Notes under the pieces: generated by a model
Database searches by the model: none
The model's input: the letters and a program-made list of their open reading frames with translations, nothing else
Told to the model about the DNA's origin: nothing
In this document: one piece after another, positions 16,150-33,468 of the stretch
Layout: each line of letters opens with the position of its first letter
Numbering within the stretch: the stretch's first letter is position 1
Source of the DNA: an uncultured Candidatus Saccharibacteria bacterium
GTDB lineage: Bacteria; Patescibacteriota; Doudnabacteria; UBA920
Length of the DNA stretch: 64,000 nucleotides
Reading direction: 5' to 3'
Assembly (NCBI GenBank): GCA_964612745.1
Contig: CAZTCH010000006.1
Location: forward strand, 5,477 to 69,476
Translations under genes and position numbers: made by a program

Positions 16150-16313
16150 AGTACAAATAATATATTGCGTTACTATAGTAAGGTTACCACAGTAACTATT
16201 TCTTTGCAAGTCATTAAGTGATGGGCTGCTATTCGTCTAATTTCTTGCTATAATTGGTGCTAATAAAATTAACTACAATTGTACGACTACCATTCCCGTA
16301 CAGGTTAAATTAT

Positions 16314-17892: not shown

Positions 17893-17907
17893 AAAAGACT
17901 AACTTGT

Positions 17908-18480
17908 ATGACTCGATCTATCACACTGGTAACAAAGAATCCTTTGAAAATAGAAGCCATGGAAAGAGCGCTCGTACCCTACAAGATTGCTCTGAACGTT
18001 GAAAATTTTTACGTTCCTGAAATACAGTCGGACACTTGTGAAGAGGTGGCTAAATTTAGCGCTCAGTATGCTGCAAATTATTCTGGAAAAGCAGTGGTAA
18101 AAGCAGACACTGGTTTTTATATTGATTCACTTGGCGGGTTGCCTGGAGTGTATACGAGCGAGTTTGAGAGAAAACTAAGCCCACAGAAACTCTTGAAGCT
18201 CATGCAAGACGAAACTACTAGGAGCGCCTCAGTTGTCTACGCTGTTGCATTCTGCCTACCTCAAGGTGAACCAGTGGTTTTTAGTAGCGGGTCAAGAGGA
18301 ATTATCGCTGAAGATGTTCAAGGCCAAGATGGAATGTTAATCGACTCAATATTTATTCCAGAAGGATTTACTAGAACCTTGGGTGAAATAAAATTGGAAA
18401 GCCAGGCTCAAGCAGATGCAGTGTGGGGAGACGCCGAAGAACAGTTTATAAAATGGTATATACAGACACAGCCAATCTAG
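17908..18480 (+). CDS. Ham1/ITPase-family non-canonical NTP pyrophosphatase.
   Basis: ITLVTKNPLKIEA (TGNxxK-like), KADTGFYIDSLGGLPGVYTSEF, and a C-terminal FIPEGF...GE segment match the Maf/Ham1 fold. Confidence 0.75.
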   Translation: MTRSITLVTKNPLKIEAMERALVPYKIALNVENFYVPEIQSDTCEEVAKFSAQYAANYSGKAVVKADTGFYIDSLGGLPGVYTSEFERKLSPQKLLKLMQDETTRSASVVYAVAFCLPQGEPVVFSSGSRGIIAEDVQGQDGMLIDSIFIPEGFTRTLGEIKLESQAQADAVWGDAEEQFIKWYIQTQPI

Positions 18481-18556
18481 TACCGCATCGGTATCGCCTT
18501 GTACTGACAATTATATTAAATTGAAAGGAGGGCAAGAGATACATCTCTATGCCCTC

Positions 18557-18928
18557 CTACTTCGGGAAGAAAAGTGCAATTTCTCTTTTCGCTTCCTCAA
18601 AGTTATCTGGTGAATGCATCACGTTGTGCGTAACGGATGCGCTATATTGTGTCCGCATAGCCTTTTTAACCGCCAACCCGGTGGCAACGGCGTTTGGACC
18701 TTGCCATACTTGAGCAATAATTGGTGCCGAAGTCTCGAAGGCTACATGCACCCAGAATTGCTCGTCATAGTACGGAAAATCTCGCCACCGAAGCATGAAG
18801 GCTTTGTCTAGCTGCATGCTTTTTTCGTATACAAGCGTTAGACCCGCTTGTCGCATGGCGGCCCCTATAACGGGTGTCAGCTCTAGGGTTATGGCATCGG
18901 GCTTAAGGAGCACAAGTGTTTGCTCCAT
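18557..18928 (-). CDS. ndk: Nucleoside diphosphate kinase.
   Basis: TLVLLKPDA and NVMHSPDNFEEAKREIALFF (catalytic His present), 123 aa. Confidence 0.88.
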   Translation of the reverse strand: MEQTLVLLKPDAITLELTPVIGAAMRQAGLTLVYEKSMQLDKAFMLRWRDFPYYDEQFWVHVAFETSAPIIAQVWQGPNAVATGLAVKKAMRTQYSASVTHNVMHSPDNFEEAKREIALFFPK

Positions 18929-19043
18929 CTTTTGCCTCCGTTTTTGTGTGGAAGTGAACTTTATATGCAGCCGTTACTGCATCTTGCCTGTGAGGGCAGA
19001 AAAGACTAATGGTCTGGCATATAAAGCCTGTAACTTATTTTAA

Positions 19044-19089
19044 GTTGCAGGAGCTATTGGTAAGTAATCTTCTAAACAGCTCCTGCAAC
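19044..19089. terminator. Long hairpin (12-bp stem GTTGCAGGAGCT/AGCTCCTGCAAC) downstream of ndk.
   Basis: The inverted repeat is visible. The loop is about 22 nt, so terminator function is uncertain. Confidence 0.45.
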
Positions 19090-19278
19090 TCAAAATATTT
19101 GCCATCTGTTGTTTATGTTGCCTGTTTCTGAGTTTTTGGTATTTTGACTACTATATCATAGAAACGACGAAAAACAAGGGTCGCATGAAAAATGCCGTAA
19201 AATGGCTCTAATTTGATTGTAAAATAGAAGAGTTCATCATATACTAAGACCAAGCTGTATTAGCTATATAAGTGACTT

Positions 19279-19866
19279 ATGACTATCGTTTTTGAAGGTC
19301 TTCCCGGGTCAGGCAAGACAACACTCGTAAATCATTTTGCGAGAATTTTTGAAGCCGAAGTAGTTCCGGAAATTATTGACTTGGGTGAATCTTGGAAGCG
19401 TGCGTGTGCCACGAATGACCAGAGCTTCTTTTGGCAAAATGATTTGCAAAAATCACTAATCGCTGCACAAGCCCCAAAACATGCTTTTCTAGATCGTGGA
19501 TACGTTACCACTCTCGCTTATAATTACTCAGGCTGGATTTTTAACCAGGAATCTGATTTTCCAAAATTACTTAATAACTATTTTACGGATATTGTTCCAA
19601 AAAATCTCCAACCAGACGCATATCTACTATTTTCAATGTCTACTAAGTTAAGCAATGAAAGAAAGAAGCGGGAAACCATTAAAGGCCACCCCATGCAGGA
19701 TGAGGATTTTCTTAAGAAGATACATTTTTTCTACCAATCTTTCCTATCAACATTTGAGCCGGATATACCTGTGTATCACGTAGACGCGAATGCTTCCCTT
19801 GAGACAGTCCAGGAAAATGTTAAGCACATTTTAACCAGAATCTTACAAGCGCATGGCAATAGCTAA
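19279..19866 (+). CDS. P-loop nucleoside/nucleotide kinase, thymidylate-kinase-like.
   Basis: A GLPGSGKTT P-loop and FLDRGYVTTLAYNYS, which resembles the Tmk DRYxxSxxAYQ motif. Confidence 0.7.
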   Translation: MTIVFEGLPGSGKTTLVNHFARIFEAEVVPEIIDLGESWKRACATNDQSFFWQNDLQKSLIAAQAPKHAFLDRGYVTTLAYNYSGWIFNQESDFPKLLNNYFTDIVPKNLQPDAYLLFSMSTKLSNERKKRETIKGHPMQDEDFLKKIHFFYQSFLSTFEPDIPVYHVDANASLETVQENVKHILTRILQAHGNS

Positions 19867-21190
19867 AAAAATGAAAACCGTTGCAGTGGTATACTTGTCT
19901 CACGATGGACTTGCGAGCCTGTACACAGGAGTCGGAACTTCTGGTCGAGATTTTTGTTTGGCATTTGAAACTATTCAGAAGAAATATAAAAAGAAAGGAT
20001 TGGCACTTACTCTATTCCCTGGAACAATTAGATACAAAAGCAGCTTTCACGGATATAGGGTAGACATTGAAAATGAGGTGTCCGCTATTTGTAAGCGCAG
20101 CGGCGGCAAAATGATTTGGATCGACAATGGTACGCACGGAACTGTTTCGTACGGAGGTCTGGCACAGTGGAAGAAGTGCTCTGCTAGTGCAGCAAAATAT
20201 ATACGAACCCTTTCAGAAAAGTATGACCATGTTATTGCGTTTGCCAATGACACCCCCTTCGCAGGGGTGGGCAGATTAGTTCAGTCACCAAATGTAAGCA
20301 CCGTCTGGGTACCCCATAGCACCGTTATGGTACATAAAGACTTTCGCCTTACCAAAAAAGATGGCAAGACTCAAGCATTTACGCAGAAGCGTTTTATGTG
20401 GGAGCGAGCAGCAATCCAGTGGGCCAATGAGAGCCGCAATAACTGGACTGGCTACACAAGTTTATTCATGAAGCGCCATCTTGTTTCAGCGTATCGAGCA
20501 GACCTATTAAAACTCATGGATACGCAAGTAGGTATATATTTCCCTAGACTTGCGAGTTATAGAACATCACAAACAGAAATAAAAAATAGGCTAACAAGCT
20601 TGGGAATCCCTACAAACAAAGAACTTATTACTACCTTTGCGAGGGCTGAAATGTACAAAGGAGTAGATCTAACACTGGCATTGGGTAAATACACCCATGA
20701 CAAGTATGGAACAACAACCGTGATATTAGTAATACCATACTCAAACAGAGACCCTTATATAAAAGAGATGCAGCAACTACGGGATCGAGTGGATAAAACT
20801 GCAATCCTGCTGTTCGGCCATGATTTCCTCACGCCTCACCTGCTGATGCAGTGGAAACACACCAAAATGGTAGCTGTGCTATCAAGGCAAGAGCCAGCCG
20901 GGCACGTCCCTAATGAATTCAGATACTACAGTAATCCAAACGCGCGACTACTAGTTTCTGACCGTGACGGCCTACCAGAAAGAGTTGCAGACGGTGCAGA
21001 CGGATTTATTACTAGCGTCAACAGCTTAGGGGACATTAAGAGGAAAGCTGACACTATTTTTGCTCTATCTTCTGTAAAATCAAAGTTAATTGCAAAACGT
21101 GGACGCCAGAGAGTCCTGCACGATTACTCCATAGTATCCAATATAGATCGGACACTTAAAAAGATTATGAGTTTATATAATTTAACCTAA
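19853..21190 (+). CDS. 445-aa protein, tentatively a GT-B-fold glycosyltransferase-like enzyme.
   Basis: The N-terminal VVYLSHDGLASLYTGVGTSG and the C-terminal ARLLVSDRDGLPERVADGADGFI resemble the GT4/GT-B donor-binding region. The match is weak. Confidence 0.5.
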   Translation: MAIAKKMKTVAVVYLSHDGLASLYTGVGTSGRDFCLAFETIQKKYKKKGLALTLFPGTIRYKSSFHGYRVDIENEVSAICKRSGGKMIWIDNGTHGTVSYGGLAQWKKCSASAAKYIRTLSEKYDHVIAFANDTPFAGVGRLVQSPNVSTVWVPHSTVMVHKDFRLTKKDGKTQAFTQKRFMWERAAIQWANESRNNWTGYTSLFMKRHLVSAYRADLLKLMDTQVGIYFPRLASYRTSQTEIKNRLTSLGIPTNKELITTFARAEMYKGVDLTLALGKYTHDKYGTTTVILVIPYSNRDPYIKEMQQLRDRVDKTAILLFGHDFLTPHLLMQWKHTKMVAVLSRQEPAGHVPNEFRYYSNPNARLLVSDRDGLPERVADGADGFITSVNSLGDIKRKADTIFALSSVKSKLIAKRGRQRVLHDYSIVSNIDRTLKKIMSLYNLT

Positions 21191-21196
21191 CAAACT

Positions 21197-21868
21197 ATGC
21201 CCATTATCGATTCCTTCACAAAAGAAATAGCCATTATAGAAACGCTCTTCGGAAAATCCTATGAAGATGCAGGTGGTGCCGGGTATCGGTACTATCATAG
21301 TATGAGAGTGGCGAAAACTTGCGAAAGTCTTGCTCAATACGAACAGGTAGAAAATCCAAGGCTCTTAGTATTGGCGGGGTTGTTCCATGACATTGGTAAA
21401 TCTGAGCGTATAGAACAAAATGGCTTCTTGGATGGCCGTCAGGAGGCCGACGTTCTGAAGGGAAATCACGAAGACTACACACTGGTGAAAGAACTGCTCC
21501 AGCGGTATTTAGTTGACCTTCAGCCTGATCAAGACTTAGACATTGTTGCTTCGTATATTGCCAAGAATGATACCAAGGAATCTAAGCTGCTTAAAGACGC
21601 AGATAACCTTGATGAAGTAGGCCTTGTAAACGTTTGGAAAATGTTTACATATGGAGGACTAAAGAAAATATCAATTAAAGATACGCTTGACTATTATTTT
21701 AAGGAAGATAAACCACGTTTACTTAAAAAAATTGATGCTCTCATGAATTTTGATATTTCAAAACAGATGGCGAGCGAGCGTGTGCAAAAAGTTGACGAGT
21801 TCTTGCGTAACTTGGACAAAGAATGTAAAGCAGAAGACATTTCCGTATTGAGGAATTCTTCTTTTTAG
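21197..21868 (+). CDS. HD-domain phosphohydrolase.
   Basis: H...HD metal-binding motifs (YHSMRVAKT and LFHDIGK). Confidence 0.8.
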   Translation: MPIIDSFTKEIAIIETLFGKSYEDAGGAGYRYYHSMRVAKTCESLAQYEQVENPRLLVLAGLFHDIGKSERIEQNGFLDGRQEADVLKGNHEDYTLVKELLQRYLVDLQPDQDLDIVASYIAKNDTKESKLLKDADNLDEVGLVNVWKMFTYGGLKKISIKDTLDYYFKEDKPRLLKKIDALMNFDISKQMASERVQKVDEFLRNLDKECKAEDISVLRNSSF

Positions 21869-21879
21869 TGTAACCACTT

Positions 21880-22653
21880 ATGCAGTATTCAAAGACAGTT
21901 ATCCCAATAGTCAGAGAGGTGCGAAAGTTACTTTTGCCATACTGGGGCACTGTAGACATTATTGCGCAAAAAGATGCATCGTCTCCTGTTAGTGTAGTAA
22001 CAAAGCTGGATTTTGCAGTAGAAAAACAGGTGGCGGAAAGACTTGCCCAAGTTTACCCTCATATCCCATTTATCGGTGAGGAGTACGGGGGAGATAGAGA
22101 AGCCTCAAGATTCTGGCTTATGGACCCCATAGACGGAACGAACCATTTTGTTCGAGGTTTACCATTTTGCACTTCCATGGTCGCCCTTGTTGAGGAAGGA
22201 CAAGTTATCTTTTCTGCTATTTATGATTTTGTAAATGATCACATGTACTGGGCAGAGCGAGGGTTCGGGGCATATTGCGAAACTGAACGCCTGAGTGTTA
22301 GCAAACGCCCTCTTTCTGAAGCCTACATTTGTTGGGAAAGTCGCATAGAGAATCCAGATAATTTAGCACTGTTTCTAAAATTATACGAGAAAGCTATTCT
22401 GCTCAAAACAGTTGCCTCCGGCTGGGAATACGCCATGATAGCCTCCGGTAAGCTTGATGCCCGCATTTGTTTCGACCCGTATAGTAAAGACTACGATTTT
22501 GCCGCTGGGTCACTTATGGTGTCTGAGGCGGGAGGGGTTGTGGCGAATATTGGGTCAAAGGAGTATGACCATAAAAATTTAAATTTTATTGCTGCAAATC
22601 CTATTATATATTCAGAGCTGACAGAAAAGGCTGACTCGTTGTTTCATAAATAA
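21880..22653 (+). CDS. Inositol-monophosphatase-family phosphatase (IMPase/CysQ-like).
   Basis: WLMDPIDGTNHF and WEYAMIASGKLDA motifs. Confidence 0.85.
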   Translation: MQYSKTVIPIVREVRKLLLPYWGTVDIIAQKDASSPVSVVTKLDFAVEKQVAERLAQVYPHIPFIGEEYGGDREASRFWLMDPIDGTNHFVRGLPFCTSMVALVEEGQVIFSAIYDFVNDHMYWAERGFGAYCETERLSVSKRPLSEAYICWESRIENPDNLALFLKLYEKAILLKTVASGWEYAMIASGKLDARICFDPYSKDYDFAAGSLMVSEAGGVVANIGSKEYDHKNLNFIAANPIIYSELTEKADSLFHK

Positions 22654-22750
22654 GATAAATTTACATAGCGATATTAAGAATTTGAGCCGATAAATTTAAT
22701 TCAAGGCTAATTTTCTTCCAATCTAGAGTTCTGAACTCGTCCACGATACG

Positions 22751-22796
22751 GAGCCAACAAAAAAGTAGTACTTCGGTACTACTTTTTTGTTGGCTC
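22751..22796. terminator. Strong hairpin (21-bp stem GAGCCAACAAAAAAGTAGTAC/GTACTACTTTTTTGTTGGCTC) after the IMPase gene.
   Basis: A perfect inverted repeat with a 4-nt loop. Confidence 0.7.
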
Positions 22797-22925
22797 TAGA
22801 AAGGGCTGGGGATCGAAGGGAGCGGTTCGCTACCAGCGAAATTTCATGCGAATGCTTGGAGTATGAAATAGTGGCGGGCCAGCGTTAGGTGTTTAAATAG
22901 AGGCGCCTGAAACCTTTTCTTTTTA
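22776..22925. repeat. Copy 1 of a tandemly duplicated intergenic element of about 110-130 bp (TTGGCTCTAGAA...GCGTTAGG...).
   Basis: About 85% identity to 23040-23150. Confidence 0.6.
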
Positions 22926-23039
22926 GCTTGAGCGGAGGAGGGCACCCAAGCAAAATAAATAGCACCACTCATGCGTGGTGCTATTTTATTTGATTAATAT
23001 TTCGTTTGAGGATTCAAATAAAGGTACCTGACACCTTTT

Positions 23040-23216
23040 TTCTTGGCTCTAGAAGGAGCTCAGGGATCGAAAAGAGCGTTCTGCTACCAGCAGAATTTCA
23101 TGCGAATACGTGGAGCATGAAATAGCGGCGGGGTCGCGTTAGGCGTTATTCGAAACGACCATGAGCCTGTCGAATGGGAGTTGAGAATAGCCGTGGGTGA
23201 CCGATCCTCAGCTCCC
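23040..23216. repeat. Copy 2 of the same intergenic element. It ends in a 16-nt near-copy of the tRNA-Asn 3' end.
   Basis: CGATCCTCAGCTCCC at 23202-23216 versus CGATCCCCAGCTCCC in the tRNA. The distal part (...TTCGAAACGACCATGAG...GAGAATAGCCGTGGG) recurs at 54715-54790. Confidence 0.6.
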
Positions 23217-23221
23217 ATAAT

Positions 23222-23557
23222 TTATTCTCCTAAAATATCTTTTAAGACATTGTCAAATCCGAAAAGTTTTGAACGGGCAATGGCAAATACTTCTTGTAGT
23301 TTATCTCCGTGAGTTATACTGAATCCTTCCTCGCCAATACGCATGAATTCACTATGGTCATCTCTATTAGGATAATAGTACAGCCAATGTGCTCCTTCTG
23401 AGTCTTTCAGAACAGACCAGAGGTATTTATCGTCGGGGTAAGTAAAGTAAAACTCTTCACTTCCGCTCGGGGCATCGTCTGATTTTCGTACTGATTGAAT
23501 TTTTTCTTGGTCTGAAACTATTTTTTCGACGAGTTGTTGAATTTTTAGATTATTCAT
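23222..23557 (-). CDS. Hypothetical protein (111 aa, acidic, soluble).
   Basis: An ORF with a 1-bp gap to the upstream ORF. No recognisable motif. Confidence 0.55.
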   Translation of the reverse strand: MNNLKIQQLVEKIVSDQEKIQSVRKSDDAPSGSEEFYFTYPDDKYLWSVLKDSEGAHWLYYYPNRDDHSEFMRIGEEGFSITHGDKLQEVFAIARSKLFGFDNVLKDILGE

Positions 23558-23558
23558 A

Positions 23559-24002
23559 TTACTTGCCTTTAGAATTATGGTTTTCTACCTCTAAGGTGGT
23601 TATGCTCTCCTTAATCTCGCTATATAAACTAATTTTGTCTGTTTCGTTAACCTGTTTACCTTCATCAATATCGGTCATCATGACGCGAACTCTTTTCATC
23701 ATATTGTCCCCGAAGTGTTTGCTTAAAGTGGGATTGCCTTTAATTTTTCCCAGGATATGAGCTAAAGCAGAACGAAATTTTTTTGATTTATCTTTATCGT
23801 CCTGACTGCTTTCATGTAGGGTTTCTATCCAATGTCTTAGGTCCGCCAAGGATGCTTGGAGAGAGTAACTTAGAAGAACTGCAAGTGCAGCCGATATTTT
23901 CTTACGTTGCGTAATGGCTACGATAATGGCTGCTACCCCCACCGTTATCTCTGTAATATTCGCTATAAATGAGATGCCTGCTTGAATAGTTTGGAAGGTC
24001 AT
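23559..24002 (-). CDS. Hypothetical membrane-anchored protein (147 aa, N-terminal TM helix).
   Basis: An ORF with a hydrophobic N-terminus, paired with 23222-23557. Confidence 0.55.
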   Translation of the reverse strand: MTFQTIQAGISFIANITEITVGVAAIIVAITQRKKISAALAVLLSYSLQASLADLRHWIETLHESSQDDKDKSKKFRSALAHILGKIKGNPTLSKHFGDNMMKRVRVMMTDIDEGKQVNETDKISLYSEIKESITTLEVENHNSKGK

Positions 24003-24329
24003 AATGGTCCACCCGGGCTGGATTGTTCAATCTAGCACCGTTAATCATGCAATACTTGTTATTTTACTCCCTAGTCTACTCATTTTAATCCTCCGTTGGT
24101 TTTCTGTCTATAAGTATGTTTTTGTGCATTAAAGGATTAATGGGAAGAAAGAGTTAGAAAAGGTCTTGGAGGATTATTTTAAACAGCACCCTTGGGGTAA
24201 GTAGATTTAAATAAGGGTGCCTGACACCTTTTCTTTCTATTTCATGTCTAGTTAAAATTGCCGAATTTAGCTTACGAGAAAATGAAAATGGTGGTAAAAT
24301 TATGATAAATCATCAGACCCTTTTTTGTT

Positions 24330-27300
24330 ATGACCCCTACGACAGCGCAATTTGATAGCAAAGTGCTCCGACGCTCCAAGAGCGAAAGCGACTTTAACTT
24401 GTATAGAGCTGCCTTAGAGTGGGGACTTATTGACCCTATTGTGATAGAAAGTTCGGAAGATTTAAAGTCGAAGTATAGGTGGGAAGATCGTGTAAGTCCA
24501 TACAAGCATCAGGTAACTAACCTGATTACTTTCTGTCGGAGGCTTCCTGTGAGTTTATTGGCAGATGATGTGGGCTTGGGTAAAACCATAAGTGCAGGGC
24601 TAATTGCAAGTGAACTTATTTCCCGAGGTCGTCTTACAAAGATATTAATAGTTTGTCCAAAAATCCTACGGGACCAGTGGCAAGAAGAGCTGCGTGTAAA
24701 ATTTGATATTCAATCCGTCATTGTCACAGGCCAAGAGTTAGTTAAAGTAAAGCCACCTGAAGAAGGTGGCGCAGTTATTACTACTTATAATACCGCCCGC
24801 TTGTATCTTGATAAGATAGAGAAGGTTGGGTACGAAATGTTAATCCTGGACGAAGCGCATAAGCTAAGGAATCTGTATGGGACTGACGCGGCACCAAAAG
24901 TCGCATTGAAATTTAAGAAAGCGTTAGCTGATAGATTATTTCAATATGTATTAATGTTAACCGCAACACCTATCCATAATAGGTTGTGGGATATTTATTC
25001 TTTGATAGATTTGTTGGCTGTCGCTCGAGGCCACGAAAACCCCTTTGGTCAGGAGGGGATATTTGCTCGTAAATATATAGAGGGAGATAAAATTCAGGCT
25101 CGCCGACTACGGCTAGAGGCTAAGGAGGAATTCCGAGACAATGTATACAGGTATATGTCTCGAATTAGACGCGGAGATACAGACTTAAGTTTTCCAGAAA
25201 GAGTTATTCAACTGCACCCAGTTGAACCATCAGCAGAAGAAGTAGAATTGCTGAATTTAATCCGAGAACCAATCAAGGAAGTTAATTTTCTTTCTCAAAT
25301 AACTATATTACAAACTTTTGTTAGCAGTCCTGAGGCTCTGTTGAGAGTCCTAGAAAATATGGCGCTAAACAAAACGTTGCCCAAATCCTTACAACTACAG
25401 GATGTCAAAGCAATTGTTTCAAGAATCAAAATTACAGCTAAGTTGAAAGGGCTGGGTATTTTGATAGAAAAACTTAGCCAAGAGAAACCGGAAGATTGGC
25501 GTGCAGTAATATTTACAACTCGAAGAGAAACTCAGACTACAATACAACACTTTCTTCAACAGAAGGGTATTTCTTGCGGTCTGATTAATGGTGACTCTGG
25601 ATCTAGAAACCAGGATACTATAGCGAATTTCACTGCTGATGTCCCCAAGATTCATGTAATAGTTTCTACAGAGGCAGGTTCTGAAGGTGTTAACTTACAA
25701 AAAGCCAACGTGCTGGTTAATTACGACTTACCGTGGAATCCCATGATCGTAGAGCAGCGTATTGGTCGCATTCAACGTCTTAGTTCTAAATTCGCTAAAG
25801 TATCAATCTTTAATATTATTTTAAAAGGTACTTTTGAAGAATACATTGTGGCAAGGTTGGTCGAAAAGTTGCAGATGGCTTCTAATGCAATAGGAGATAT
25901 TGAAGCATTATTGGAAGCATCTGGGATTGACGATGATGATAATGACTCCGATGGGTTTGCAGATAAAATAGGTAAATTAGTGCTAGCCTCATTGGCTGGT
26001 ATGGATGTCCAAGAGTCTACTTTACGAATAGAAAAAAGTATAGAAGACGCTAAGTTTAAGCTTGAACAAGAAAAACAGACTATAAATACTCTTTTGGGCA
26101 GTATGAATGGCGCCGAGGATATGGGCCCAAAGTGCCCTAAGCTACCTACCCAAGTTAGGTCTATTAATGTCCAATCTTTTGTGATGCAGGCACTTGAAAG
26201 CCTTGGAGTGCGTATAGAAGAGAAATCTGGTCAGCGTGTTGCTGTGTCGGAAAACCAACAAGAGGTAATTCGTTTCTCGGACGAAAAAGTCGATCCTGAT
26301 TTAATAAGTACTCTATACGCTCCTGGTACACCTGCATTTGAACGTTTAGTTTCTCGGGTTGCTGCCAGAGATTTACACTTAACTGAAGATGTAGATACAG
26401 ATATAATAAACTCCTTAAAGGAGATATCTTGTCAGTGGGCAGAAGGTTTCGAGGGAGAGATACAAGACTCCAGAATTACAGAAACTTGGCGGTGCTTTCA
26501 AGGCAGCGCGTTGGTGCGTGTCAGAGCAACAGTTGCATGCGATAGTTATGAAAGACTAATAGATATAGACTGTAGTCCGGAAGACCACTGTATGGAGACA
26601 GGGAAATATGGTCTAGACACGATTGGTGAAATAATCGACCAGCCCAGCAGTGTGGGTGTGGTAACCAAACACCTATATGAGAAGGCTCTTATGGATGAAG
26701 GTATATCAGAATTCAGTAGGTTCTATACAGAACGCCGTGCCCAAGAAATTAGCGCATCGGGTAGTGACGAAAGAAAACGAAAAAAAGTAGAAGATGACTT
26801 CACGCCTCGTCTAGATATAGTTCTCGTTGGGTTAAAAGGGACCGTTTATCGTAAGATAAAGACACTAGCTTCTTATAAATTAAGTGCTGACTTTGAATAC
26901 CAAAGTTCTCTCTTAATAACGCCTTACACAAATACGATAAATCAATCTCCGGATTTAGTGAGGTGCGATAAAACTGGCAGGATGGCACCACAAGACTGTA
27001 TTGCTAAATGTGAGATTAGTGGGTCTCGCGTATTGAGGCACCTCTTAGTGGCGTCTGAGTTAAGCGGTCGATTAGCTCTGCCAGAACATATCTTAATATG
27101 CAGTCTAAGTACTAAGCGTGTGCTAATTGACGAAGCCGACAAATCTTCAATTACAGGGAAGATGATAACAAAGAACTTACTCTATACATCAGCAGTAAGT
27201 GGTAAGACTGCGGAGCCAGAATTTTTTAGCAAGTGTGAATTTACTGACACGCATGCTTTGGAAGCTGAGTTGGAAATAAGTCAGGTTTCTGGAAAGAAGT

Positions 27301-28031
27301 TTAGAGTGGATGAGCAGCTACGCTCTCATATTTCTGGGAAGATTGGTCACAAACAAGAATTTATTTTTTGTGCAGAGACTAATGTGCCGCTTTTACCAAC
27401 TGAAGCCGAGACATGCGAGGTAACAGGTAAAGTAGTTGTGCCAGGTTTGCTAGAGAAGTGTGAGGTGACAGGGAAAATGGTATTGCCAGATTTGCTCGAA
27501 AAGAGTGCGCTGAGTAGTAAGAAGGCATTAAAGAAATATTTTGTCGCCAGTAACCTTTCTAATGCTAATATTTTGGAGCAGGAAGCAATTAGATCAGCTA
27601 TTGGTAATTTCTGCACACCTCAAGAGGCCAGGCTGTGCTCTTGGAGTGGCAAACTTTGTCATCCTGATGATTTGAGAATCTGCGACCTAACCGGACTAGA
27701 GATTGAGTTTGAGTACGCTACTAGTAACGGAGGTACTCGACTGGGCCCTCTCGTGCTTATGCTTGATGGTGTGTCGCGAAAGGGAGACTTCTCTGAGCAC
27801 TGGCGAGCTCTGGCAGATAATTTGACTAAAGCTTTGGGTGGTGGGCGAGCTAATATTGAGGCTGCAACGCTTTCGCCAAATAAACAAAATATTGCAGTGT
27901 GCGCTGAGGTGCGTACATGGGTTGGTCTGCAAACCCGTCATACTGGATTCGTGTTTTCTGTATCAGACAATAGTATTATAGGCAGAGTTGTTCAGGGGAA
28001 GAGGGTTACTGGTGGCTGGTCCATTCGTTGA
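24330..28031 (+). CDS. SNF2-family ATPase/helicase (1233 aa) with a large C-terminal repeat domain of unknown function.
   Basis: The N-terminal roughly 530 aa carry DVGLGKT (motif I), DEAHKLRN (II), TATP (III) and QRIGRIQR (VI). The C-terminus carries about 14 degenerate 15-residue repeats with a C-x-x-T/S-G-K motif, including an exact tandem 45-bp DNA repeat at 27412-27501. Confidence 0.9.
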   Translation: MTPTTAQFDSKVLRRSKSESDFNLYRAALEWGLIDPIVIESSEDLKSKYRWEDRVSPYKHQVTNLITFCRRLPVSLLADDVGLGKTISAGLIASELISRGRLTKILIVCPKILRDQWQEELRVKFDIQSVIVTGQELVKVKPPEEGGAVITTYNTARLYLDKIEKVGYEMLILDEAHKLRNLYGTDAAPKVALKFKKALADRLFQYVLMLTATPIHNRLWDIYSLIDLLAVARGHENPFGQEGIFARKYIEGDKIQARRLRLEAKEEFRDNVYRYMSRIRRGDTDLSFPERVIQLHPVEPSAEEVELLNLIREPIKEVNFLSQITILQTFVSSPEALLRVLENMALNKTLPKSLQLQDVKAIVSRIKITAKLKGLGILIEKLSQEKPEDWRAVIFTTRRETQTTIQHFLQQKGISCGLINGDSGSRNQDTIANFTADVPKIHVIVSTEAGSEGVNLQKANVLVNYDLPWNPMIVEQRIGRIQRLSSKFAKVSIFNIILKGTFEEYIVARLVEKLQMASNAIGDIEALLEASGIDDDDNDSDGFADKIGKLVLASLAGMDVQESTLRIEKSIEDAKFKLEQEKQTINTLLGSMNGAEDMGPKCPKLPTQVRSINVQSFVMQALESLGVRIEEKSGQRVAVSENQQEVIRFSDEKVDPDLISTLYAPGTPAFERLVSRVAARDLHLTEDVDTDIINSLKEISCQWAEGFEGEIQDSRITETWRCFQGSALVRVRATVACDSYERLIDIDCSPEDHCMETGKYGLDTIGEIIDQPSSVGVVTKHLYEKALMDEGISEFSRFYTERRAQEISASGSDERKRKKVEDDFTPRLDIVLVGLKGTVYRKIKTLASYKLSADFEYQSSLLITPYTNTINQSPDLVRCDKTGRMAPQDCIAKCEISGSRVLRHLLVASELSGRLALPEHILICSLSTKRVLIDEADKSSITGKMITKNLLYTSAVSGKTAEPEFFSKCEFTDTHALEAELEISQVSGKKFRVDEQLRSHISGKIGHKQEFIFCAETNVPLLPTEAETCEVTGKVVVPGLLEKCEVTGKMVLPDLLEKSALSSKKALKKYFVASNLSNANILEQEAIRSAIGNFCTPQEARLCSWSGKLCHPDDLRICDLTGLEIEFEYATSNGGTRLGPLVLMLDGVSRKGDFSEHWRALADNLTKALGGGRANIEAATLSPNKQNIAVCAEVRTWVGLQTRHTGFVFSVSDNSIIGRVVQGKRVTGGWSIR

Positions 28032-28119
28032 TTATTCTTGTTCTGCCAGATTAAGAAAAGGTACCATAAAGAAAAGGTGTCAGGTACCTTTTGTAGTTAC
28101 TTTTTGGTATTATGTCTGT

Positions 28120-28379
28120 ATGGATAAAAAAGTTTTGCGAGGGCTTGCGCTTAAAAAAGAGGAGAACGATAAGGTAGTAAAGCGCATTATTACTTTTTCC
28201 AGTCGGAAAGAGACGAAGAAATTGGTGTTATTGCCGCACAGGAGGTGCTCGATTTTTTTCTTGAGGAGGTTGGGGCTGTTATTTACAACCAAGGGGTGGA
28301 CGATGCGCAGTCTGCTTTGAAAGAGCAGCTAGAAGAACTAGAGTATGCGCTGGGAATGTTAAAAAAAGACACAAAGTAA
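28120..28379 (+). pseudogene. Small conserved-looking protein (tentatively DUF2164-like) interrupted by a -1 frameshift in a T5 homopolymer at 28194-28198.
   Basis: Frame 1 reads MDKKVLRGLALKKEENDKVVKRIITF. It then continues in another frame as QSERDEEIGVIAAQEVLDFFLEEVGAVIYNQGVDDAQ...KDTK*, which has no start codon of its own. One extra T would restore a single 86-aa ORF. Confidence 0.5.
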
Positions 28380-28394
28380 TTTTATTGAAAATAT

Positions 28395-28820
28395 ATGGCA
28401 AGCGTAAATCCTTGGATTAACTTTAACGGCAATGCGGAAGAAGCATTTACGTTTTACAAGTCAGTGTTTGGCGGAGAGTTCGGCAAAGTTGTACGGTTCA
28501 AAGATCTTGCCAGTGCAGAATTTCCTGTCCCAGAAAACGAGCAAGAAAAAATCATGCTTATTACCTTGCCAATTGGGCAGGGAAGCGAGCTCATGGCGAA
28601 CGACGTGCCAGCAGTTATGGGCAAAGTAAACGAGCGGGAAAACAGAAGCAAAATTTCCGTGCGCGCAGAAAGCAAAGAAGAAGCAGAAAAGTTGTTTGCT
28701 GGTTTGTCTGCTGGGGGAGAGGTAGAAGGTCCAATGGGCGACGGTCCGTGGGGTTCTTATGCTGGCATGTTCCGCGACAAGTACGGCATTGAGTGGATAA
28801 TCGAGTTTTACACAAAATAA
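28395..28820 (+). CDS. VOC-superfamily protein, PhnB-like.
   Basis: NPWINFNGNAEEAFTFYKSVFGGEF is a PhnB/3-demethylubiquinone-like N-terminus. Confidence 0.8.
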   Translation: MASVNPWINFNGNAEEAFTFYKSVFGGEFGKVVRFKDLASAEFPVPENEQEKIMLITLPIGQGSELMANDVPAVMGKVNERENRSKISVRAESKEEAEKLFAGLSAGGEVEGPMGDGPWGSYAGMFRDKYGIEWIIEFYTK

Positions 28821-28827
28821 CATATTT

Positions 28828-29214
28828 ATGAATAGTACCCAACATTCGCAAAGAATAAGTGTAGTGAAAGAGTTGTATATACCGTTTGTGGTTTTGATTG
28901 CTTTTTTTCTTGTGCAGGCACTTGGTATTATTGGCGAGGTCGGACTTACACTTGGGATTATAGGTGTGACGCTTTTCACGTTCGCCATGCGTTGCCACGT
29001 AGGGGAGGTAAAATTGTTGTTGATTGGTACAGCCTTGGGCGCGTTTTTAGAAATTGGTTTACGAGTGTTTGGTTTCCAACAAGTTTGGACTCGCGCGTCT
29101 TTGTTTGGCGTTCCGTATTGGTTACCACTCATATGGGGTTTAGGTTTTGTATTAATTACTCGGCTTGGTATATATATTAGAAAAATGCAAGACACAGTGG
29201 ATGTGCACGCATAA
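28828..29214 (+). CDS. Hypothetical integral membrane protein (128 aa).
   Basis: Three to four hydrophobic helices. The start overlaps the stop region of the upstream gene. Confidence 0.6.
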   Translation: MNSTQHSQRISVVKELYIPFVVLIAFFLVQALGIIGEVGLTLGIIGVTLFTFAMRCHVGEVKLLLIGTALGAFLEIGLRVFGFQQVWTRASLFGVPYWLPLIWGLGFVLITRLGIYIRKMQDTVDVHA

Positions 29215-29338
29215 GTCTGTAGTAAAAAGGCCACCTTCGCACTGCGCGAAGGTGACCTTTGTTTATTGAGTTTTTATTGTTTCTTTTGATAAAGCGCACG
29301 CAGTGTGTTACCGTAGTTGCAATAGGTAAACTTGCTCT

Positions 29339-30019
29339 ATGAACCAAAACTTTGTTGTTGTATTTTCCCACGGCATGGGTGTACGGAAAGATAATCTCGG
29401 CTTGTTCACAGACATAGCACAGCTGTTGTCGACCCACGGAGTTGAGAGTGTGCAGTTTGACTACAATGTAATAGATGACGAAAAAAACGAAGTCTTTGTA
29501 CCGCCATTTAGCCAGCAAGCAGAAAAACTGCAATCGGTTTTGGCAGAGACTGCACAGCGGTATCCTGCGAAAGATATTATCATAATTGCTCAGTCACAAG
29601 GGTGCGTCATTCCCACCTTGTGTACTTTGTCTTTCGTTCGACAAGTGATTGGCATTGCTCCATTTTTCCATACGAACATGGCGGAAGTTGTGAAGCGTTT
29701 TGAATCGAAGCCAGAAAACAAATTAGATTTCACGTCTGTGTCCCGAAGACATCGGACCGATGGTAGCACAACACTGTTCCCACCGGAATACTGGCAGGAG
29801 CGATTTAAAATGGACATTGTGCAGCGCTACAACAGTCTTGCGCAACAGGTGCAATTGAGTTTGATTTATGGGCACGACGATAAGATTATCGACTTTAACA
29901 ACTTGCGTGACATAAAGTACGCCAGAATTATTAACGCCGACGGTAACCACGATTTTTCGGCACAGTACCGAGCCGGTTTGCTAAAGATTGTTGCGCAAGA
30001 GTTACAGCTGCAGTCTTAG
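29339..30019 (+). CDS. Alpha/beta-hydrolase-fold protein.
   Basis: VVVFSHGMG, a nucleophile-elbow-like IIIAQSQGC, and a C-terminal His region. Confidence 0.7.
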   Translation: MNQNFVVVFSHGMGVRKDNLGLFTDIAQLLSTHGVESVQFDYNVIDDEKNEVFVPPFSQQAEKLQSVLAETAQRYPAKDIIIIAQSQGCVIPTLCTLSFVRQVIGIAPFFHTNMAEVVKRFESKPENKLDFTSVSRRHRTDGSTTLFPPEYWQERFKMDIVQRYNSLAQQVQLSLIYGHDDKIIDFNNLRDIKYARIINADGNHDFSAQYRAGLLKIVAQELQLQS

Positions 30020-30050
30020 TATGCTGGCGCATGACCCACCGCAGGAGACC

Positions 30051-30428
30051 ATGACCGTTATGTCTATATCTAGAAAAAAATTTGTGCTCCTGTTTTTACT
30101 CTCTGGGTTTGCCTTTATGGCAATTACTACTTCTTTGTTGGGAAGTACAGGACCGCGTGGGTTTCCGAAACAGCCGGACTCTGTGTTACGTACGGGGAGT
30201 GACTCACCAGTAGCGTGGAAGCGCGTGCTGGCTGCGGGGCTTTATCCGATTAAAGTTGTATTGCTCTGGCCGTTAGCATTGCCAAACAGTACTTTTTTAC
30301 AAGATGATCCACCACCACCGTTTGTGGGTGCGTACATTGCGGCGTATTGGAGTTTACTCGCACTCGGTTTACACGCTGTACTGAAAGTGATGGCCCGAAC
30401 GCGACGAGTGTCAGTTTCTAAGGTGTAA
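30051..30428 (+). CDS. Hypothetical membrane protein.
   Basis: An ORF with several TM helices. An alternative start lies at 29988. Confidence 0.5.
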   Translation: MTVMSISRKKFVLLFLLSGFAFMAITTSLLGSTGPRGFPKQPDSVLRTGSDSPVAWKRVLAAGLYPIKVVLLWPLALPNSTFLQDDPPPPFVGAYIAAYWSLLALGLHAVLKVMARTRRVSVSKV

Positions 30429-30670
30429 TAAAACAACCGCCGGTGGCGGTTGTTTTATTTATATTCCAGTTCTGCAAGGTCTATGTGTACGTTGTTCTTT
30501 TCTGCGATTTTAGCAATCCAGCTTACTATGACATCTTGGCGGTGTTTGAGCTCCAAGTAGCGCTCGTCGGAAAGGTGGTTAAGAAAAGGTATCTGGTATC
30601 TTTTCTTAATACCTTTTCTTAAATTCGTATACAAATTTGTAAAAATTGTCTGGCTGTTATTACTGCTATA

Positions 30671-30850
30671 ATGATTTATATGGAACCAGAAAATATAAAA
30701 AAACAGCAACAGAGACTGGAGCAAATATACAAGAATTATTTACAAGAACTTGAATCTTTATTGAATGAAAGAAAACATATAATTACGGATTTTGTGCATG
30801 CGTTAGATGCAAAAAAGATTCAAGCCATTAAAAAGGTGCTAGGTTTATGA
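30671..30850 (+). CDS. Small 59-aa ORF, predicted coiled-coil, translationally coupled (ATGA overlap) to the downstream kinase-like gene.
   Basis: MIYMEPENIKKQQQRLEQIYKNYLQELESLLNERKHIITDFVHALDAKKIQAIKKVLGL. Its stop overlaps the ATG at 30847. An extended -10 TGCTATAAT sits immediately upstream. The ORF is below the 60-aa cutoff of the ORF track. Confidence 0.4.
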   Translation: MIYMEPENIKKQQQRLEQIYKNYLQELESLLNERKHIITDFVHALDAKKIQAIKKVLGL

Positions 30851-31968
30851 GTATTCCAAATCAGGCCTATGAAAAACCAAACATGGAAGATATCGGGCCA
30901 GCCAATGAGCTTGCAGAGCAAGTAATAACTTCTCGACAAAGTTCCGAAAAAGGAGTTTCTAGAGAACAATTAAGACACCTTGCGAGTGAGGTGGCCCAAC
31001 ACGTCGAAGCCCAAGCAGCTCGAGTCGCGAGTGCTGATCTTGGCCTAGATACAGCTCTCGCAGATCCGCATGTGTCTCCTGAGCTTCTTGCAGAAACGAA
31101 GCTAGAAGCAAATGTTGAAAATCGCCTAACTCTAAATAGTGTTAGTTTGGAGGCGCTTGCAAAAGACACACTTTCGCAAGTTAGAGACGTAGAAACAGAA
31201 GTAGTCATGGCAGAGAAAGAGGAGCTAATGGCTAACGCGCCTGTGTTGGGTCCTGGAAAGTTTTTGGGTGGCCATGAAGGGAACGCACATCTGGTGGAGT
31301 TAGGGGGTTTTGGATATGCGGTACAAAAGACTTATGACATGGAGAGTAATCCTCTTGCAGAAGAAGTGCGAGAACGGCGGATTCATCAAGAAAGAGCAGT
31401 TTATGTTCTTGATAGAGCAATAAGGCTTGGAGTAGTCCCTGTAACTATAGAAAGAGTTATCAACGAAAGACTTGCAAGTATGCAAGAGTTTATAGAGGGT
31501 GCTCAAACAAGCAATAAGGTGAAACCTGAACAAGTACCAGTTTCGGAGATGCAAAAAATCGTACTGTTAGATTTAATAACAACAAACTGGGACCGTAGGA
31601 CGAATCCTGAAAACTTACTCGTCCGTCTTTCCGAAGATGGTTCAGGGCAAGATCAGGTGTTCGCTCCAGATAGTGGAGCTTCTGCTTTTAACCCCCGCAC
31701 TGCTTTTGCCTCGGAAATTCCACAAGAATTAACTGAGCAACCACTAGATGCAAACATTGTTAAATTATTGCACAACTTTAATAATAATCCGGGAAAGGTC
31801 ACGCAACTTCAAGCAGATCTAACCTCTTTGCTTGGAGAGAGAACTGCGACATTGTACATTTTACGGATTGACGGATTAAGCCGTTCAATAGATGCTAATG
31901 GGAAGGTGGATTCAGAAAAGCTACGGATGAATATGCAGAGCAACTTTGAAATATCGGAGTTAATGTGA
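30847..31968 (+). CDS. PI3/PI4-kinase-like protein (type II PI4K-like catalytic segment) with an acidic, low-complexity N-terminal region.
   Basis: LLDLITTNWDRRTNPENLLV followed by VFAPDSGASAFNP resembles the catalytic loop (DRxxxN) and the DxG activation segment of PI3/4-kinase-fold enzymes. Confidence 0.55.
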   Translation: MSIPNQAYEKPNMEDIGPANELAEQVITSRQSSEKGVSREQLRHLASEVAQHVEAQAARVASADLGLDTALADPHVSPELLAETKLEANVENRLTLNSVSLEALAKDTLSQVRDVETEVVMAEKEELMANAPVLGPGKFLGGHEGNAHLVELGGFGYAVQKTYDMESNPLAEEVRERRIHQERAVYVLDRAIRLGVVPVTIERVINERLASMQEFIEGAQTSNKVKPEQVPVSEMQKIVLLDLITTNWDRRTNPENLLVRLSEDGSGQDQVFAPDSGASAFNPRTAFASEIPQELTEQPLDANIVKLLHNFNNNPGKVTQLQADLTSLLGERTATLYILRIDGLSRSIDANGKVDSEKLRMNMQSNFEISELM

Positions 31969-32144
31969 GGTATGTTGAGTTAAGAAAAGGTACCAGGTAC
32001 CTTTTCTTAACACATACTCGCACTCGGTTTACACGCTGTACTCGGAGCGGTATTTCGCAAGTAGCGGCTATAGGGTTGTGCGTAGTGGCGTGTAGCTACA
32101 GTTCGCTCTTGAACAATACCCTGTTTTCAGGGCATACTACGTGC

Positions 32145-32597
32145 ATGAGAACTATATACAGAGACATTGTGGGTGGGTTCATTTTTTCGCGTGACGGCAA
32201 ACTGCTTTTAGGTAAAAATCGGAAAGGCGGGGTGTACGAAGGGTGCTACGTTGTCCCGAGTGGTGGAGTCGAGTCTGGAGAAATAAGTGAACAAACTCTC
32301 GCTCAAACTCTAAAAGAAGAAACAGGTATTGTAATCGATAACGCAAAAATCACCGCCATGGGCACCTCCACAGGGGAGCACCAAAAAACACTTGCAGATA
32401 CCGGAGAAGTGGTAAATGTTAAAATGACCTTTCACGATTTCCGCATTGACCTAGACCAAGACGCTGCAGCAGTCACGCTGACCACAGAAGATGACTGGCA
32501 CGAAGCAGAATGGTTCCTAGTTTCTGATCTCGACGAACTGAAGCTGAGTCAGCCTACCTGTAAGCGACTAATTGCTATGGGTTTGGTAAACTTGTAA
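32145..32597 (+). CDS. NUDIX hydrolase.
   Basis: Nudix box GGVESGEISEQTLAQTLKEETGI. The start was chosen at the Met downstream of the palindromic motif; the ORF itself extends to 31965. Confidence 0.8.
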   Translation: MRTIYRDIVGGFIFSRDGKLLLGKNRKGGVYEGCYVVPSGGVESGEISEQTLAQTLKEETGIVIDNAKITAMGTSTGEHQKTLADTGEVVNVKMTFHDFRIDLDQDAAAVTLTTEDDWHEAEWFLVSDLDELKLSQPTCKRLIAMGLVNL

Positions 32598-32889: not shown

Positions 32890-32950
32890 TCTCTTTTCAA
32901 AAAACACACTCAGTATTTTGTACTGGGTGTGTTTTTTTGTTGGCGTGAAA

Positions 32951-33313
32951 TTAGTTTGCTCGCACAGGCTGCCACAGTTCTATGGGGTTGCCTTCGGGGT
33001 CATAAACGCGAGCAAATGTGCCAATCTCCGGCATGCTGTTCCACTCTGCTTTTTGCTCGACGGCGACACCATTACTTTGCAAGTCTTGGATAAGCGCTGC
33101 AAGGTCGGTGACTCGCAGGTTTAGCATCCATTGTTTGTCTTGCGCAAAGTAGTCTGTAGTGTGCGCAAAAGGTTCAAAGACTGTGGGGCCGGCTTGCTGC
33201 TGCCATACCATGTCTTGAATGTCTATGCCAAGTGTTGTCGTGTACCACTCTTTGAGTGCTTTGGGGTCTGTTGCGCGGAAGAAAAATCCGCCAATGCCAG
33301 TAATGTTGTTCAT
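32951..33313 (-). CDS. VOC/glyoxalase-family protein.
   Basis: MNNITGIGGFFFRATDPKALKEWYTTTLGI...YDPEGNPIELWQP, typical of glyoxalase/bleomycin-resistance-fold proteins. The start was set at the internal Met. Confidence 0.75.
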   Translation of the reverse strand: MNNITGIGGFFFRATDPKALKEWYTTTLGIDIQDMVWQQQAGPTVFEPFAHTTDYFAQDKQWMLNLRVTDLAALIQDLQSNGVAVEQKAEWNSMPEIGTFARVYDPEGNPIELWQPVRAN

Positions 33314-33468
33314 GGGTTGTAGTATAACCCAAAAGGCAGACACATTCCACGCTCTTTTTGCAAAACCTTTAGGTTTGCGTGGTTTTCTGCTTGTCTGTAC
33401 ACTGTGTGTAGCGTTTACGGGCTTGTTTTGCAAGCCTACAACCAAACAACCAGCACAGAGGAGGAATC

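Follow-up and report, generated by a model that had tools for sequence, protein, structure and literature searches.

A predicted PI4K-II-type kinase and a small upstream gene on a DNA segment recently shared between strains of a candidate phyla radiation bacterium

In the 64,000-nucleotide stretch of contig CAZTCH010000006.1 (hereafter the window) from an uncultured Candidatus Saccharibacteria bacterium, a small open reading frame (ORF59, 30671..30850) runs directly into a larger one (ORF373, 30847..31968). The original prediction, made from the sequence alone, had read the larger product as a PI3/PI4-kinase-fold protein lying in a motif-bounded cassette of its own. Here we ask what kind of protein ORF373 encodes, whether ORF59 is a real gene that belongs with it, and whether the two form a discrete unit. 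The answer that we regard as reasonably probable is that ORF373 would be a soluble, probably active phosphotransferase of the type II phosphatidylinositol 4-kinase (PI4K-II) fold, belonging to a subfamily of the candidate phyla radiation (CPR) and encoded together with a microprotein on a recently shared 1660-bp segment. The ORF list and the sequence bore out the predicted positions of both ORFs, and the ATG of ORF373 (30847-30849) overlaps the TGA of ORF59 (30848-30850) as ATGA, as had been described. The elements of the pair are as follows.

30671..30850, plus strand: small ORF of 59 aa if read from 30671; a 56-aa product from 30680 is more likely.
30664-30672, plus strand: putative extended -10 element TGcTATAAT, read from the sequence.
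30833..30838, plus strand: Shine-Dalgarno (SD)-like AAGGTG within the small ORF, 8 nt 5′ of the kinase ATG, read from the sequence.
30847..31236, plus strand: N-terminal extension of ORF373 (aa 1-130), acidic, with three long predicted helices.
31237..31968, plus strand: predicted PI3/PI4-kinase-fold catalytic domain of ORF373 (aa 131-373), from profile, alignment and model.
31564-31623, plus strand: catalytic-loop string LLDLITTNWDRRTNPENLLV (aa 240-259), holding N247, D249, R250 and N256.
31657-31695, plus strand: metal-binding/activation string VFAPDSGASAFNP (aa 271-283), holding D275-S-G.

Both peptide strings quoted in support of the kinase call are present in ORF373, and the alignments upheld the motif resemblance, placing the strings at the catalytic loop (N247-x-D249-R250...N256) and the metal-binding D-x-G (D275-S-G). 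A word-indexed homologue search returned a single match, a strain copy with 99% identity found in an aquatic metagenome. When residues 125-373 were searched exhaustively with phmmer (HMMER) against 1.84 billion representatives, 146 relatives were obtained at E ≤ 1e-3, including 16 at E ≤ 1e-10; the closest (P0002; E = 3e-25, 34% identity) aligned over query residues 15-247 of 249. ORF373 and 49 of the 146 relatives were combined into alignment A1 (50 members). PF00454 (PI3_PI4_kinase) was matched by 45 of the 50 members (best E among relatives, 2.9e-12), HipA_2 by 27/50, and Fam20C by 7/50. Against the PDB, the A1 profile gave PI4K IIβ (PI4K2B; 4wtv, 5e-18) and PI4K IIα (PI4K2A; 4hnd, 6e-17) as the best solved relatives, followed by FAM20A/C at 1e-10 to 1e-13 (FAM20A, 1e-13), and also recovered FAM20B, the glycosaminoglycan xylosylkinase 5xom.

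Structure prediction had been proposed as a check on this call. An AlphaFold2 (AF2) model of ORF373 built with a 68-sequence alignment (predicted local distance difference test score [pLDDT] 86.6, predicted template-modelling score [pTM] 0.82) comprised a bilobal kinase domain, with pLDDT >90 across most of it, and a helical extension on its N-terminal side; single-sequence AF2 (pLDDT 41) was unusable. In a Foldseek search of the PDB with this model, PI4K2B (9hhm/4wtv) ranked first (E about 1e-6, probability 1.0), and all significant matches were kinases, with Fam20A (fifth), Rio2, CtkA, and PRPK among the further matches below PI4K IIβ. Against viral models, the matches were PI3K/PI4K-like domains of phage polyvalent proteins. 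Neither the profile searches nor the model placed the protein in a non-kinase fold. Judged from profiles and model, ORF373 is predicted to have a kinase fold of the PI4K-II type and to belong to the PI3/PI4-kinase superfamily. The N-terminal third had been characterized as acidic and low-complexity. The N-terminal 130 aa are indeed acidic (pI 4.5, net charge -13), but the second description fits less well; the 30-aa entropy (3.1-3.3 bits vs about 3.6 for the remainder) points to a mild bias, and AF2 placed three long helices there (aa 13-31, 39-66, and 78-130; pLDDT 66-88).

The columns of K161 (the 'AVFKP' lysine), E182 ('RE-AAY'), Q213 (hinge), and D275 (D-S-G) were invariant in the alignments, and those of D242, N247, D249, and R250 were nearly so. 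The GG of the glycine-rich loop (G141-G142) was invariant within the subfamily, and N256 was retained in the catalytic loop D249-R250...N256, an invariant or near-invariant part of the alignment. Given the conserved G-loop, K161, E182, D249-R250...N256, and D275, ORF373 is probably a catalytically active kinase. The whole protein has a pI of 4.8, zero Cys, and a maximum KD19 of 1.1, and sequence analysis found no signal peptide, transmembrane (TM) or hydrophobic segment. ORF373 would thus act as a soluble cytoplasmic ATP-dependent phosphotransferase. Since the protein shows nothing suited to membrane binding and the stretch that follows D-S-G is non-basic, the phosphoacceptor would more likely be a protein or a small soluble molecule than a membrane phosphoinositide.

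A true phosphoinositide (lipid) kinase, possibly acting on host-bacterium membrane phosphatidylinositol during an episymbiotic CPR life, would agree with type II PI 4-kinases being the nearest characterised relatives by both sequence profile and structure, and an inositol-monophosphatase (IMPase)-family gene is located about 9 kb upstream. The IMPase family is ubiquitous, so this link is weak. PI4K2A/B are anchored to the membrane through a Cys-rich palmitoylation motif, which is absent from ORF373 with its zero Cys. The strongly acidic protein also lacks a signal peptide, a TM segment, and the long PI4K2 insertions, and no secretion genes are adjacent. Lipid kinase activity of ORF373 is unlikely from its sequence, and we consider this explanation very improbable.

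To return to the favoured phosphotransferase and its partner, ORF59, originally read as a coiled-coil ORF, encodes a basic protein (pI 9) with 3-4 hydrophobic spacing and a helix-favouring composition. Hidden Markov models (HMMs) of small neighbouring ORFs were scanned against 98 sequences (the window and 97 loci). The window, its strain variants, and four independent loci (L002-L005) each have an ORF59-family gene as the immediate 5′ neighbour of the kinase gene, with spacings to the kinase start of -4, -4, -8, +10, and +1 nt. In pairwise BLASTP, the ORF59 of the window matched those of L005 (E = 1e-8) and L003 (E = 8e-5). Because the kinase gene is immediately preceded by a homologue of ORF59 at four other independent loci, we take the small ORF to be a real, conserved gene that is tightly coupled to the kinase in the clade of the window. 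The coupling that had been suggested from the overlap is thereby backed by conserved synteny and tight spacing, and co-occurrence of the gene pair, a further proposed check, was found at these four loci. In L011 (267-2038), an ORF59-family member (E = 2e-6) is located upstream of an unrelated 533-aa protein without known domains, 3.5 kb ahead of the L011 kinase; the ORF59 family is therefore not exclusively tied to the kinase. The N-terminal extension of ORF373 was considered as a docking site for the microprotein and set aside, since it has no sequence similarity to the extensions of relatives or to the L011 533-aa protein.

The small gene probably starts at its second ATG (30680) and encodes 56 aa, because the first ATG is partly covered by the putative -10 element and alignment with the homologues begins at the second. 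A promoter consensus scan requiring a -35 did not include the extended -10 element at 30664-30672 among its predictions. The transcript start is predicted near 30680, in which case the small-ORF mRNA would be leaderless. The pair would form a self-contained expression unit composed, in order, of a hairpin, the extended -10 element, the (probably leaderless) small ORF, the internal SD with the ATGA overlap, the kinase gene, and a second hairpin.

The kinase has relatives in Saccharibacteria, Minisyncoccia, Azam-, Davies-, Harrison-, and Magasanikbacteria, and Paceibacterota, and more distant ones in Acidobacteriota and a few other taxa. A further 62 kinase loci came from metagenomes; the pattern that defined them (VPPT...) misses the subclade of the window, and the ORF59-family census is limited accordingly. 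The close subfamily shares a C-terminal helix, YI-RI-AF--SID--G-IS-EKF, which ORF373 carries as LYILRIDGLSRSIDANGKVDSEKL, a stretch that aligns with the subfamily signature YI-RI...SID-G-S-EKF. By these features, ORF373 can be assigned to an uncharacterised kinase subfamily widespread in Patescibacteria (CPR), as a divergent copy within it.

In about 40 CPR loci, the kinase is accompanied by an 85-aa orphan protein, encoded mostly directly downstream and, in Magasanikbacteria, upstream (for example, L003:1658-1915, L002:1958-2215, L006:5104-5358, L011:5954-6211, and L012:3728-3982). This family is present at nearly all loci with a close kinase and, with a mean column identity of 60%, is more conserved than the kinase itself (consensus M--VEIYKLQNDG-Q-V-A-C-L--G-V-CEGD...LFPKDG--FLEQL--NFKSGYLNAS-VKE). 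On one metagenome contig (L044:2402-4574), the kinase and 85-aa pair is duplicated in tandem. Neither the ORF59 family nor the 85-aa family had Pfam, NCBIfam, or PDB relatives, ORF59 matched no helix-turn-helix (HTH), ribbon-helix-helix (RHH) or other family significantly in these libraries, and single members of both partner families gave no significant match in PHROGs and PADLOC. The window locus appears to have lost the 85-aa orphan normally found 3′ of the kinase, and a 56-59-aa helical microprotein precedes the kinase instead. This microprotein would be made in step with the kinase, may bind it as a regulator, adaptor, or substrate, and may take over the role of the 85-aa protein of most relatives.

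Kinase-fold proteins of this sort had been described as often being effectors, toxins or defence-associated. We performed a Pfam census of 61 neighbouring genes of the kinase family from 25 distinct loci. The neighbours were mostly housekeeping genes, namely RelA/SpoT (3 loci), RNase III, NusB, RNase R, EF-Tu, S7, RpoC, and MraW/MraZ, and neither a recurring third gene nor a defence context was found among them. The PADLOC scan gave only weak catalytic-loop matches, to the candidates PDC-M66A and PDC-M03A. With no significant PADLOC membership, housekeeping neighbourhoods, and no signal peptide or TM segment, the description did not carry over to this family; because the neighbourhoods are housekeeping, a toxin-antitoxin (TA), defence, or effector role is unsupported.

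Whether the pair forms a discrete unit was addressed through the repeats around it and the divergence between strains. The elements concerned are listed below.

30355..30382, unstranded: direct repeat copy 1 (DR1), TACTCGCACTCGGTTTACACGCTGTACT, in the 3′ end of the membrane-protein ORF 29988..30428; left edge of the 1660-bp unit.
30427..30459, unstranded: terminator-like hairpin AATAAAACAACCGCC-GGT-GGCGGTTGTTTTATT with flanking A and T runs; closes the upstream ORF.
30455..30577, minus strand: frame ending ...SDERYLELKHRQDVIVSWIAKIAEKNNVHIDLAELEYK-stop / ...SWIAKIAEKNNVHIDLAELEYK-stop; stops at the bidirectional hairpin.
30579..30609, unstranded: palindrome copy 1, TTAAGAAAAGGTATCTGGTATCTTTTCTTAA, about 60 nt upstream of the putative promoter; -21 kcal/mol, z = -5.9.
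31980..32010 (extended arms 31976-32014), unstranded: palindrome copy 2, TTAAGAAAAGGTACCAGGTACCTTTTCTTAA, 12 nt after the kinase stop; right edge.
32015..32042, unstranded: direct repeat copy 2, reading in frame into ...LALGLHAVLGAVFRK-stop.
28051..28094, unstranded: third palindrome copy, degenerate and partly tandem (half-site and imperfect full site), 20 nt beyond the stop codon of the gene for a 1233-aa SNF2 helicase.

The gene pair is bracketed on both sides, as predicted, by a 31-nt palindrome, TTAAGAAAAGGTAYCWGGTAYCTTTTCTTAA (30579-30609 and 31980-32010), which had 0 matches in 100 dinucleotide-preserving shuffles. Beyond the two full copies and the degenerate one, there are no further copies within the 64-kb window, and exact matches in metagenome contigs and viral contigs were zero. 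Copy 1 is built like a bidirectional hairpin terminator or insulator. The folding energy of copy 2 was -24.6 kcal/mol (z = -7.4), and the 15-nt arms of the hairpin at 30427-30459 are 100% complementary (-22.4 kcal/mol, z = -5.4). No known RNA families were found in 27900-32300. In the minus-strand frame at 30455-30577, 5/6 strain differences are synonymous and 1 is non-synonymous; it has no Pfam match and is possibly a small gene or a 3′ gene remnant truncated at palindrome 1.

Strain L001, about 95% identical to the window overall, served as the reference for divergence. Mismatches amounted to 15/1432 nt (1.0%) between the palindromes and 106/1427 nt (7.4%) outside (Fisher p = 5e-19). The change-points were sharp, with 7.8% divergence to the left of DR1, about 1% from DR1 onward, and about 12% to the right of palindrome 2. 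The 28-nt direct repeats are perfect and spaced by 1660, and the right end of the segment 30355-32014 coincides exactly with the extended arm of palindrome 2; the last 46 nt (30383-30428) of the upstream membrane-protein ORF fall inside it. Because the divergence pattern has its edges at DR1 and palindrome 2, the segment is a discrete unit recently shared between strains. The motif-bounded cassette of the original prediction is thus supported by the flanking 28-nt repeat and the drop in divergence inside the unit.

In strains L001 and L098, direct repeat copy 2 is reduced to its last 12 nt. The ...LALGLHAVLGAVFRK-stop following this copy in the window may be how the membrane-protein gene upstream originally ended. 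The 1660-bp segment would have been inserted into, or recombined at, the 3′ end of that gene, either by insertion with duplication or by homology-facilitated illegitimate recombination at the palindrome; we infer both direction and mechanism. No recombinase is encoded inside the unit. Two independent assemblies begin within these elements, L098 at window position 30377 in DR1 and L099 at 30598 in palindrome 1; such breaks fit repeated or strain-variable junctions.

An integron attC reading of the palindrome was also considered. Integron attC sites have R''/L''-L'/R' arms with a GTTRRRY core, and known attC sites are longer than 33 nt. The ends of the palindrome (GTTAAGA / TCTTAAC; 33 nt), compared by eye, come close to GTTRRRY/RYYYAAC without fitting, and a scan of roughly 30 window ORFs revealed no integrase. 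The attC reading was provisionally set aside on account of the length, the core mismatch, and the lack of an integrase among these ORFs.

The overlapping gene order, the palindromes, and the transfer could also be read as a HipA-like TA or conflict module, in which the kinase would be a growth-arresting toxin, the microprotein its antitoxin, and the palindromes operators or the boundaries of a mobile addiction cassette. A small gene overlaps a larger kinase gene, more than half of the aligned relatives match the HipA_2 model, the weak PADLOC matches involve the catalytic loop, and phage polyvalent proteins have the same fold. Furthermore, the unit is accessory, recently transferred, and situated in a strain-variable region, and pairs of kinase and 85-aa genes are tandemly duplicated in L044. 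On the other hand, HipA_N and HipA_C are absent from the kinase and HTH/RHH from the small protein, and palindrome 1 does not cover the promoter but is located about 60 nt 5′ of the -10 element. The partner also varies (ORF59 family in five loci, 85-aa family in most), and the family resides mostly amid genes such as RelA/SpoT, RNase III, NusB, EF-Tu, S7, and RpoC, not in defence or mobile islands. We therefore regard a HipA-like module as doubtful. A bolder proposal, tentative and of low probability though a little less doubtful, is a mobile, self-insulated conflict module of a new TA/defence type, in which the 56-aa helical protein restrains the kinase and recombination takes place at the palindromes, with the kinase and the 85-aa protein forming an unrecognised CPR-wide signalling pair.

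Several observations weigh against the favoured reading, that of a probably active PI4K-II-fold phosphotransferase with a microprotein on a shared segment. ORF373 itself gave no direct PF00454 match in Pfam even at E ≤ 1, and nothing at E ≤ 1 beyond weak noise against Pfam, NCBIfam, and PDB sequences; the family link is therefore transitive. The one faint direct lead was TIGR03843/SCO1664 (E = 0.03, 13.7 bits). The filing of ORF373 in the superfamily, despite its failing the direct Pfam threshold, is based on profile homology, catalytic residues, and fold. The Foldseek TM-scores were modest (0.35), owing to the N-terminal helices of ORF373 and the large PI4K2 insertions. Binding of the kinase by the microprotein is something we infer. 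The role of the palindrome as the unit boundary is circumstantial, the palindrome not being found elsewhere, and no empty insertion site was detected; in an exact OmdA look-up, all strains with enough flank carried the cassette. Moreover, the whole window contains no homologue of the 85-aa protein (best tblastn E = 0.14); the gene is likewise lacking from L001 and L005, and what is left of it in L004 is no more than a remnant. ORF373 departs from near-invariant positions of the subfamily (VPPT to VPVT, GS-Q to AS-Q, and AIDHG to APDSG), and the about 10 substitutions between strains (5 synonymous and 5 non-synonymous) are too few to establish purifying selection. Given the deviant positions and the missing partner, a relaxed function of ORF373 is conceivable.

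In its extreme form, this last point leads to a decaying or non-catalytic paralogue, a pseudokinase or scaffold remaining after loss of the otherwise near-universal 85-aa partner, for which the deviating subfamily positions and the 5:5 ratio would also speak. We consider it the least probable explanation of all, since all catalytic residues are kept, the frame is intact in at least 3 strains or samples, and the AF2 model is confident and well packed. In addition, L004 and L005 share the architecture of the window without an intact 85-aa partner, which suggests a stable variant.

The surroundings of the unit also vary between strains, with gene-sized indels whose ends coincide with hairpins. 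An α/β-hydrolase gene (29339-30019) is absent in L001, and a 436-bp piece (32938-33373) comprising most of a minus-strand glyoxalase gene is absent in five contigs (L001, L098, and L100-L102). The NUDIX gene beside the cassette (32085-32597) is 11.7% diverged from L001, with 40 non-synonymous vs 20 synonymous changes, which points to an exchanged or fast-evolving allele; the OmdA gene next to it is 2% diverged, and every change is synonymous. From this setting, ORF373 could phosphorylate a small molecule (metabolite, sugar, or antibiotic) and be one of a set of accessory genes of detoxification type in a variable region, as the glyoxalase/bleomycin-resistance, α/β-hydrolase, NUDIX, OmdA, and DUF1801 neighbours each have their own hairpin, the related FAM20B is a sugar kinase (5xom), and the non-basic segment after D275-S-G would agree with such a substrate. 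This explanation is unlikely, as no similarity to APH, choline-kinase, or other such families was found in Pfam, NCBIfam, or PDB, such enzymes do not usually have a dedicated, conserved protein partner, and in other CPR genomes the family occurs outside detoxification contexts.

Other features of the window are as follows. A DEAD-box helicase encoded nearby shares 82% identity with proteins of Candidatus Doudnabacteria, which places the window in a CPR/Patescibacteria genome. A run of genes at 16254-28031 encodes thymidylate-synthase-like, QueC-like, Ham1/ITPase, dNK/thymidylate-kinase-like, glycosyltransferase, HD, and inositol-monophosphatase-family proteins and ends with the 1233-aa SNF2 helicase, whose C-terminal half is repetitive and Cys-containing and next to which the third palindrome copy is located; this run may be a DNA-modification or conflict system. 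A β-CASP/MBL ribonuclease gene (3423-4898, minus strand) had 'type VII CRISPR-associated Cas14' as its best NCBIfam model (E = 8e-123, 411 bits). The product is probably an aCPSF1/RNase J-like enzyme, because 411 bits is well below the 800-bit Cas14 cut-off. A tmRNA gene (54236-54632) has the unusual tag peptide AAKTAWSKVEAAFNAATLVPVYA, and a tRNA-Asn gene is located at 15153-15227.

Patescibacteria have tiny genomes in which a large share of genes is without assigned function. A bacterial PI3/PI4-kinase-fold protein is in itself not surprising, and a Legionella kinome survey describes PI3_PI4_kinase as an ancient family common to bacteria and eukaryotes (PMC9758233). Beyond that survey, no literature on SCO1664-like, PI4K-II-like, or CPR kinases was found. 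As far as the libraries and literature searches show, the CPR subfamily, both orphan partner families, and the hairpin-bounded cassette are undescribed. The subfamily is nearly always paired, with the 85-aa orphan protein or, in one clade, with the 56-aa helical microprotein. If the kinase is active, it and its partners would offer a tractable entry to regulation in organisms that are hard to culture, and a minimal bacterial version of the PI4K-II/FAM20 fold would be useful for the evolution of that fold. The locus also provides a concrete case of gene-sized exchange between CPR strains, in which the exchanged segment has a 28-nt repeat, is bounded by hairpins, and is seven-fold less diverged than its flanks.

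Among known systems, the type II PI4K (PI4K2A/PI4K2B) are the best match for the family by both sequence profile and structure, and the G-loop, the AVFKP-type lysine, the RE-AAY glutamate, the GS-Q-F hinge, the N-x-DR...N loop, and I-D-x-G are common to both. In contrast to these enzymes, the ORF373 domain is minimal (about 240 aa, without the long PI4K2 insertions), and the protein is acidic, soluble, bacterial, and paired with an orphan microprotein; without the Cys motif and the insertions, ORF373 was not assigned to type II PI4K proper. The SCO1664 proteins of Actinobacteria (TIGR03843), which the family profile retrieves at E = 1e-18 to 1e-28, are likewise small (about 235-280 aa) bacterial PI3/PI4-kinase-fold proteins without assigned function. 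Their C-terminal signature is a different one (KLRTV-W...PWPLV), neither the YI-RI...SID-G helix nor microprotein partners occur with them, and the score of ORF373 (13.7 bits) compares with an NCBIfam cut-off of 172.4, so that it was not counted as an SCO1664 protein.

The HipA and HipA_2 (PF20613) toxin kinases belong to the same broad fold group, and a small gene directly upstream overlaps the kinase gene in both cases. Unlike HipA, ORF373 has no HipA_N or HipA_C match in Pfam, its partner is not an HTH antitoxin, and its family context is housekeeping; only its relatives match the looser HipA_2, and the assignment to HipA was rejected. The secretory-pathway and spore-coat kinases FAM20 and CotH are relatives of the ORF373 family by profile and structure (FAM20A/C, the Fam20C model, and Fam20A), from which ORF373 differs in the absence of a signal peptide, its much smaller size, and its insertions, which are not common to both; it was not classified as a FAM20 protein. 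The PI3K/PI4K-like domains of phage polyvalent virion proteins (phrog_3162; BFVD) match structurally at E about 1e-5 and, unlike ORF373, are parts of multidomain proteins of 500-1300 aa. The relatives P0002 and P0012 match phrog_3162 at about 1e-9, ORF373 itself reached a non-significant E = 0.08 against PHROGs, and only distant kinase relatives occur in viral contigs. Taking profiles and model together, the closest relatives of the predicted ORF373 fold are the type II PI4K, followed by the FAM20 and HipA_2/SCO1664-like proteins.

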